From Hydrolagus colliei (taxonomy: Eukaryota): a DNA stretch of 64,000 bases. The translations under genes and the position numbers were made by a program. The notes beneath the pieces were generated by a model. It was given only the letters and a program-made list of their open reading frames with translations, searched no databases and had not been told where the DNA came from. The first letter of the stretch is position 1. Every line of letters starts with the position of its first letter. Where the stretch lies: assembly GCA_035084275.1 (NCBI GenBank), contig CM068746.1:28458001-28522000 (forward strand). The letters are read 5' to 3'. Shown here piece after piece: positions 4,339 to 7,300 of the stretch.

Positions 4339-7300
4339 ATGGAGAGTCGTGAGCTTCATCTGCACAAAGCCCGGGTGGGCACGGCACCCGGCAGAGAGAG
4401 GCTGCCGGCTGGCGGGGCAATAGTCGCCGCTTCCAAACCTCTGCCCTTCTCCATCGAGAGCATCATGGCTTGGAGCCGGAGCCCAAGGCGCTGCCCTTCT
4501 TAGCCTCTTTGGAAGGAGCACCGATGAAGAGAGAGCCTCGCTGCCTGCTGGCCCAATGCCCTGCATGATCCCGATCCTGCCCTTGCCGTGCGGATCCAGG
4601 CTGGCAACGGGCGGCGGCGGGGAGCTGAGGAAAGCCAACCCGGAGATGTCCCCACCACCACAGGAGCGAGTGGTTGAACTCTGGAGGCTTCTCCAAGGCG
4701 GATGGTTCCGACAGCTGTGGGCAGCCGCTGTCCCAATACCAGCTCATCCGGCCACGGGTGGTCGAACCAGACCTACTTCCACTCGATGGGGGCTTTCTGC
4801 TACTTCAACTGCGCCGCAGACGCCCCTCGCCCCTCGCCGGCCGCGATCTTCAACCTGGCTCCTTCCTCCTACATGCTGGGTTCTGCCCTCAGCCCCCAGC
4901 ACAAGGCGCTGCTGGCGGACAGGGGCAATAAACTGTTGCTGGCCCCGGGTGAGCGCCCCCCCGGGGCCGCGGTGCCCAGCAGGGAGCTAGCCCAGCACGG
5001 CAAGGACACGGGACACTTTCTCCCCGACAAGATCAGCTGCAAAAGCGGCTCCAAGAGCGGCGGGGGCGCGGCGGGCACCAGAGCCAAAGTGTTTACGTGT
5101 GAAGTTTGCAGGAAGGCAAGTGTGTGCCCTCTGGGGCGTTGTTACTGTATCGCTTTCTCTCTCCTCCCCCCCCCCCCCCCCCCCCCCCCCCCACCCCCCC
5201 CCACCACTCCCCACCACCCTGTTATTCTATCATCTCCTCCCCCTCCTCCCCCTCCTCCTCTCTACCCTCTCACCCCCTCTCCTCTCCCTATCCAATCCTC
5301 TGCTCCCCTCTCTCCTCACTTTCCTCACCTCATCCTCTGTCTTCTCTCCCCCCCCCCCCCCCCCCCCCACCCTCCCCGTGTCTCTTGTCTCTTGCCTTTG
5401 CTGTTTGTATTTTTACAATCCGTAATATTAGTAATTAAATCCCACGTTTAGAAGACAGCATCTCACAGCAAACACCTCGCCAGTTACGCACAGAGCCACA
5501 CGCCGCCCGGTGAAATCCCCTATTTAGGGATATTATTTCAGTGAAATCGCTGTTAATTTTGATGTCCGGTTTCCTGCCGATTCCTACTTAAAGGGATTGG
5601 CGGGAGAAAATAAAATGCCTTCGAAGTGAATAATTAAAGATTATTAACAACAACAACTTCGATTCATGCTGCGCCCTCCACGCCGGACGGCGTCACAGAG
5701 CGCTTATCGTTGTTACTGTTCTTTCAGGGCAAATCTGAAACTGCACAGATTGAGGCGACTGAGGGAGGATAGGCTGGGTTTCTCACTCTCTCTCTCTCTG
5801 CCAGATATGTTGATCTCTCTCTCCTCTCTCTCTATGTTTCTCTCTCACACTCTCTCTATGTCTCTCTGTGTGTCTCTCTCTCTCTCTCTGTAGGTCTTCA
5901 ATGCCCACTATAACCTAACCCGTCACATGCCGGTCCACACAGGGGCTCGGCCGTTTGTCTGTAAAGTTTGTGGCAAAGGATTTCGCCAGGCCAGCACTCT
6001 GTGTCGCCACAAAATCATTCACACACAGGTAGGTGCTTATTTTAATTTAAAAAAATAATAGCATCAATAATAATAATAAAATCAATAACAATTACAATAA
6101 TAATGACATCAATAATAACGACGATAATAATAATGACAACAATAAAGACATCAACAATCGTTTCAACAATAAACTAATGGAATAATCGGATGTGGCAATG
6201 TAATAAAACAAATATAGTGCTTAGAATTATCGGTTCCAACTGGAAGCGTTAATAACGTTACTCAGAAATGGCTTGACAAAATACCTGGAGGACAAGCGAC
6301 TTCCTGCAAAAAAAATTAAAGGTATTGTTGGTCTAGCTGACCCATCACTGAAACCTAGTTAGAAACTACCTCTGCGGAGTGATTAAAACCAAAACATAAT
6401 AATAATACGCCTTAATAATACCTTCAGCCTGAATAATGAATGGACTGTACTGGTTGGGGGAGATCTGAGGAGGAAAGAGGGCAACAGGGGTTTGGAAAGA
6501 GCAGATCTGGTCTGTAACATGTATGTGTGTGGGGAAGACGGGGTGAGTGAATGATAATGATTGAGACAGTGAGTGAAGAGAGTATAAATGCTGGTGACTG
6601 ATAGAGTGATAGTGAATCAATGAGTTCGTGAGTGAGCGAATGAGAGGGTGTGTGACTGGGGGGGTGTGAAAGAAAGAGAGTGAGAGAGAGGCGAGGGGTG
6701 GTGAGGGTTTAGGGTTATTGAGGAAATGCGTGCTCGAGCTGTGTGTCCCGTTAAAGCCTGATTTTGTTTCAAATTGTGAGCAGGAAAAACCACACAAGTG
6801 TAATGAATGTGGGAAAGCGTTTAACCGGAGCTCCACTCTGAACACTCACAGCAGAATCCACGCTGGTTACAAACCTTTTGTCTGTGAGTTCTGTGGCAAA
6901 GGCTTTCATCAAAAAGGTAGGTTCTATGTTAGTGGAAGGGGAATAATGTATAATATTCTGTATATAGATATATATGTATATATACATACATAGGTGTATA
7001 CACATTAAACTCCTGATAATTCGCCACCGGCTCACCTAATCATTACCGCTGCGGGCATCAATGCTGTGAATATCATAGCTGCAATTATTTATGTTCTTAT
7101 AAATATGTTCCCTCAGAGTGAGGAGTTATCGGGAGTTAATGAATGTACTGTAAATTCCTGATAACTCGTCGCTCTGAGGGGGGGAAAAAAAGTGGCTCAA
7201 TGTTGGGTTATCAGGAGCGGCGAATTATACTCCTGATAGCTGATCACCGAGCCCGCTTTTAAGAGGTTAGTTTCCTGCGGGTGTGAGGAGGGTTTGGGGT

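Follow-up and report, generated by a model that had tools for sequence, protein, structure and literature searches.

Local errors in the assembly consensus most likely account for four frame breaks in FEZF1 exon 1 of the chimaera Hydrolagus colliei

FEZF proteins, as described in PMC4299278, combine an Eh1 motif with six C2H2 zinc fingers, and Xenopus Fezf2 binds TLE1/2/4 via Eh1. According to PMC6637222, loss of FEZF1 blocks olfactory axon entry and the migration of GnRH neurons and causes Kallmann syndrome; homozygous loss in mouse and human impairs both processes and puberty. False indels are reported in PMC9516821 to concentrate in GC-rich 5′ exons, and 10.1101/2021.07.02.450803 describes automated polishing that produced false frameshifts at GC homopolymers. 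Our literature search, judged by title or by the start of the abstract, found no work on FEZF1 in chimaeras.

Here we describe a FEZF1 gene in a window of 64,000 nucleotides, the whole stretch of Hydrolagus colliei DNA that was analyzed (assembly GCA_035084275.1, contig CM068746.1, positions 28,458,001 to 28,522,000 of the forward strand). The first coding exon, as written, is broken by four one-base frameshifts. These are almost certainly local consensus errors of the assembly in an ordinary chimaera FEZF1 with an unbroken frame. Part of this exon is contained in 15 public runs, the best five of which are from one organism and hold 77% of the exon's sampled words. None of the 15 is an RNA run, which says nothing on expression. 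Four of the 15 were compared with window positions 4270-5150: X1 and X4 are from one sample of study P1, are possibly one data set and are not independent of each other, X5 is from a second sample in study P2, and X6 is from a second species. The run data are contigs rather than raw reads, in which rare variants are dropped and for which the library type is guessed, and the two same-species samples, from two studies, may or may not include the assembled individual. The features of the window are as follows.

3449..3470, + strand: poly-G tract 5′ of FEZF1
4339..5115, + strand: FEZF1 coding exon 1; 65% GC; 259 codons after four read-supported indels
4447..4470, + strand: Eh1 motif FSIESIMA, shared unchanged with C. 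milii FEZF1
4476..4477, + strand: error 1, a C run one base short (CC in the window, CCC in X1, X4 and X5)
4501..4503, + strand: spurious TAG, in frame solely through error 1
4552..4554, + strand: error 2, a C run one base short (CCC in the window, CCCC in X1, X4 and X5)
4650..4653, + strand: error 3, a C run one base too long (4 for 3), by X1, X4, X5 and X6
4764..4764, + strand: error 4, an inserted G outside any homopolymer, by X1, X4, X5 and X6
4971..4971, + strand: substitution, G in the window and C in the same-species runs; silent
5116..5893, + strand: intron 1, GC-AG type; the junction agrees with the C. milii protein
5894..6028, + strand: FEZF1 exon 2, 135 nt; 44/45 codons identical to C. 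milii
6784..6916, + strand: FEZF1 exon 3, 133 nt; 44/44 codons identical to C. milii
8250..8506, + strand: FEZF1 exon 4, coding part to TAA; 78/85 codons identical to C. milii
20900..46243, + strand: AASS, the neighbor; 22 coding exons matched to C. milii AASS; used for synteny and as error control
58243..59648, − strand: two protein-tyrosine-phosphatase exons (PF00102)

With an Eh1 motif, six C2H2 fingers, and AASS and a PTPRZ1-like gene as neighbors, the locus is an ordinary, single-copy FEZF1. Among 539 candidate proteins, the 3′ piece of the first exon matched one, the FEZF1 of Callorhinchus milii, at 91% identity, and this is also the best named match (XP_007892908.1, 438 aa). The Eh1 octamer aligns with the Eh1 column of seven FEZF1 proteins. 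Exons 2-4 splice into an open frame with exon 1, with 166 of their 174 codons agreeing with C. milii and no stop. In a Pfam scan of the C. milii protein and 59 window frames, zf-C2H2 scored E=1.6e-26 on the C. milii orthologue, and five stretches pass singly. Downstream and on the same strand as FEZF1 lies AASS, whose 22 exons cover 917 of the 931 residues of C. milii AASS, followed on the opposite strand by the two tyrosine-phosphatase exons. Judging from its position, the phosphatase gene is probably PTPRZ1, the human order being FEZF1-AASS-PTPRZ1. The closest named protein and the gene neighborhood identify the gene as FEZF1 rather than FEZF2, and a separate paralogue lies on contig C20.

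Intron 1 opens with GC (window 5113-5121), and the run contigs show no difference at this donor; the corresponding donor of the FEZF2-like paralogue is GT. We also considered a GT donor at 5120 and rejected it, since it is out of frame with both exon 2 and the C. milii protein. Poly-C tracts occupy positions 5166-5202 and 5348-5368 of the intron.

As written in the window, the frame from ATG 4339 passes through Eh1 and ends at the TAG at 4501-4503 after 54 aa, just as a sequence-only reading of this DNA had stated. FEZF1 peptides continue in the other two frames, and the start frame is regained at 4765. The exon is 777 nt long and ends at 5115, directly before the GC donor. A frameshift-aware alignment against C. 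milii FEZF1 places exactly four shifts in it (−1, −1, +1, +1), at ∼4475, 4552, 4652, and 4764. The earlier description of a 777-nt exon with a net shift of zero is therefore accurate, while its breaks at 4471, ∼4540, ∼4660, and 4764 were right in number and up to 11 nt off the true sites. The five in-frame pieces are 96, 96, 91, 89, and 91% identical to C. milii FEZF1, so the FEZF1-like peptides that had been noticed in other frames are not chance peptides. Four random errors of ±1 are expected by arithmetic to sum to zero 6 times in 16, which makes the net shift of zero unremarkable. Exons 2-4 contain no frameshift in the frameshift-aware alignment to the C. milii protein (the run contigs were compared over 4270-5150), and the claim that these exons are free of lesions is thus borne out against that protein alone.

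The same-species contigs X1, X4, and X5 disagree with the assembly consensus at exon 1. Each spans 4270-5150 in one contig, at depths of 5.6, 5.6, and 15.8, and each differs from the window by four gaps and one substitution in 881 nt, identically in all three runs. A C is added after 4475 and after 4551, and one base fewer is present at 4650 and at 4764. The substitution at 4971 (G in the window, C in the three runs) is synonymous and is either an error or an allele. On both flanks of the exon 1 stretch, the run contigs are identical to the window. Since the run contigs carry the four compensating bases and a continuous ORF, the frame breaks are best read as an assembly artifact. This is the outcome that the sequence-only reading had named as the mark of an artifact, namely an extra base at two of the sites and one fewer at the other two, and its main inference of consensus errors is supported. 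Of the 16 possible combinations of the four edits, only the one with all four yields an exon that is in frame and free of stops. The protein from the corrected frame is 433 aa long, 259 codons of which belong to exon 1, and it joins Eh1 to six C2H2 fingers in one polypeptide. It matches C. milii FEZF1 along its whole length, with 404 identical residues in 438 columns and one gap, of five residues, in the His run; the sequence as written reaches 333 of 461 columns, with 51 gap positions.

These contigs also bear on three other explanations. Under the first, FEZF1 is naturally divided throughout the species into two products, an Eh1 peptide of 54 aa and a finger protein without Eh1 that is 312 or 284 aa long and starts at ATG 4702 or 4786. 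Such ORFs are indeed present in the window as written, and the earlier reading had raised a protein pair of this kind in case the breaks were real. However, ATG 4702 is in the finger frame solely through the inserted G at 4764, the C. milii protein is continuous, and the frame is continuous in same-species runs of two studies. The scenario falls with this continuous ORF; as a species-wide trait it is refuted, and we give it a negligible probability.

The second holds that the window contains a decayed FEZF1 duplicate and that the run contigs derive from another, intact copy, which the assembly lacks or has collapsed. A collapsed copy would be invisible in the assembly alone, but the exon 1 DNA has one match in the 1.0-Gb assembly, the gene occupies the ancestral position beside AASS, and each run yields one contig with no second version and with flanks identical to the window. 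We consider a duplicate exceedingly improbable. The features of a unitary pseudogene or null allele are likewise lacking: none of the three same-species runs, two of them from one sample, carries any of the four indels, and there is no coding decay beyond the first break. The out-of-frame pieces, 89-96% identical to C. milii, are as conserved as the in-frame tail at 91%, which argues against coding decay in exon 1 itself.

Under the third, the four one-base indels are genuine and form a loss-of-function FEZF1 haplotype of the assembled individual, the allele of other individuals being intact. In its favor, the run contigs drop rare variants and may stem from animals other than the one assembled, and the further substitution at 4971 also separates the window from the runs. 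Against this, the window's four indels are carried by none of the three same-species runs; no second contig with the window version was seen in X1, X4, or X5, and there is no bubble in the two samples. Real alleles usually have more substitutions than indels, whereas the 881 nt compared here hold four indels and a single, silent substitution. This inverted ratio counts against a real haplotype, as do the facts that three of the four differences are changes in C-run length and that the FEZF2-like paralogue shows the same pattern. Homozygous loss of FEZF1 is, moreover, harmful in mouse and human, as reported in PMC6637222. Taken together, we regard a real haplotype as very unlikely and retain consensus errors as the explanation.

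In the second species, the main contig of X6 covers 4593-4848, reaching two of the four error sites, and lacks the bases at both 4650 and 4764. It carries seven substitutions, six of which are non-synonymous in the repaired frame and three of which are silent in the window's frame; three of the six non-synonymous changes return to the residue found in C. milii. On the question of which frame selection maintains, these substitutions are uninformative (n = 7, in a fast-changing linker) and do not favor the repaired frame, and they give no sign of purifying selection in the exon 1 linker. Two further pieces were set aside as too short, an X6 contig of 81 bases with 4 bases inserted at 4566 and a piece of 36 bases.

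With regard to cause, three of the four differences are one-base errors in the length of C runs (2 for 3, 3 for 4, and 4 for 3), and the runs at the error sites are 2-4 C long. The errors may have arisen as long-read homopolymer miscalls that were left unpolished in a locally ill-covered stretch; thin or poor local long-read coverage is our guess at their source. The sequence-only reading had attributed them to GC-rich DNA between poly-G and poly-C runs, which is plausible but insufficient. AASS has no frameshift or stop in any of its 22 exons. A frameshift was found in 1 of 30 forkhead domain loci, the 30 best-scoring of 54 matches and hence a sample biased toward intact ones, although the GC content of these regions reaches 0.66 and G or C runs of at least 12 are present at 17 of the 30 loci. 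Because 29 of the 30 are clean at similar GC, neither GC content nor poly-G/C flanks separate affected from clean genes, and we rejected them as a sufficient cause; the errors are local and clustered at some loci.

We note that seven of the eight G/C runs of at least 12 in the window lie within ∼2 kb of FEZF1 or inside it (2073-10082). The forkhead loci are similarly rich, with 35 such runs in 95.6 kb, and runs of this length seem typical of developmental-gene loci in this genome. The affected forkhead gene, L036 (G000:C16:1632928-1633140, − strand), has a −1 frameshift near domain position 71, either an error or a real pseudogene. It is flanked on either side by a G run of 25 bases, and ∼9 kb away lies L021, a forkhead gene that is intact.

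The FEZF2-like paralogue on contig C20 (L012:6705-9330; G000:C20:16041705-16044330), so labeled by its exon pattern and its finger identity, has exons of 812, 131, and 133 nt, where a whole number of codons, 135, and 133 nt are expected. At least six breaks were found, two in exon 1, three in exon 2, and one in exon 4, and four of them fall inside, or at the end of, zinc-finger exons that are otherwise invariant. Its finger residues match those of shark or coelacanth FEZF1 at 40/40, 43/44, and 62/65 positions. Indels without substitutions are the signature of sequencing error, and, judging from the sequence, these breaks are probably assembly errors too. In the ESM Atlas, the first piece of the paralogue recovered Eh1/engrailed-like clusters only, with the gene not named. 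It is an odd pattern that both FEZF loci are affected while AASS and most forkhead genes are not. Should the multi-frameshift haplotypes at both FEZF loci of the assembled chimaera be real, which we hold to be extremely unlikely, disabled alleles of two forebrain-patterning genes would be segregating in a wild vertebrate.

Elsewhere in the window, weak reverse-transcriptase fragments (Pfam RVT_1, below cut-off) occur at 19271-19627 (+), upstream of the first matched AASS exon, and at 40631-41231 (−), within an AASS intron; both are likely LINE relics. Another stretch of AASS intron, 31120-32367, has long open frames on both strands, of up to 304 aa and with no Pfam match, and is probably a repeat element.

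These results indicate that FEZF1 is biologically normal in this chimaera and that its frame breaks have no biological significance. By analogy with FEZF proteins of other vertebrates, the gene would be expected to make a normal, TLE-recruiting six-finger repressor acting through Eh1 in forebrain and olfactory development. The FEZF1 model needs correction at four places. The assembly contains local clusters of one-base errors in developmental genes, at FEZF1 by comparison with the run contigs, probably at the FEZF2-like gene, and possibly at one forkhead gene, and genes from this genome that appear frameshifted or decaying need a read check ahead of any claim of gene loss.

The closest described gene, C. 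milii FEZF1, shares with the corrected protein the 404 identical residues, the Eh1 octamer, the six fingers, and the exon-1/exon-2 junction, as well as two departures from other vertebrate FEZF1 proteins, in finger 1 and in a finger linker. It differs in that the His run of the window protein is five residues shorter and in 29 substitutions, mostly in the N-terminal half and the tail. The N-terminal half of chimaera FEZF1 (window 4339-5115) is diverged: that of C. milii is 45-51% identical to those of sharks, a ray, and the coelacanth, whereas the sharks and ray are 62-64% identical to the coelacanth. At positions that are otherwise invariant in Eh1, in finger 1, and in one finger linker, the two chimaeras have substitutions in common. 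As for the errors, the cases described in PMC9516821, such as the first coding exon of PCDH17, likewise involve false one-base indels that look like frameshifts and lie in a first coding exon rich in GC; they were found in older Sanger and Illumina assemblies, and in H. colliei GC content alone does not predict which genes are affected. In FAM156B, as described in 10.1101/2021.07.02.450803, homopolymer length errors similarly break an ORF in a long-read consensus, whereas the FEZF1 runs comprise no more than 2-4 C and the fourth error lies outside any homopolymer.
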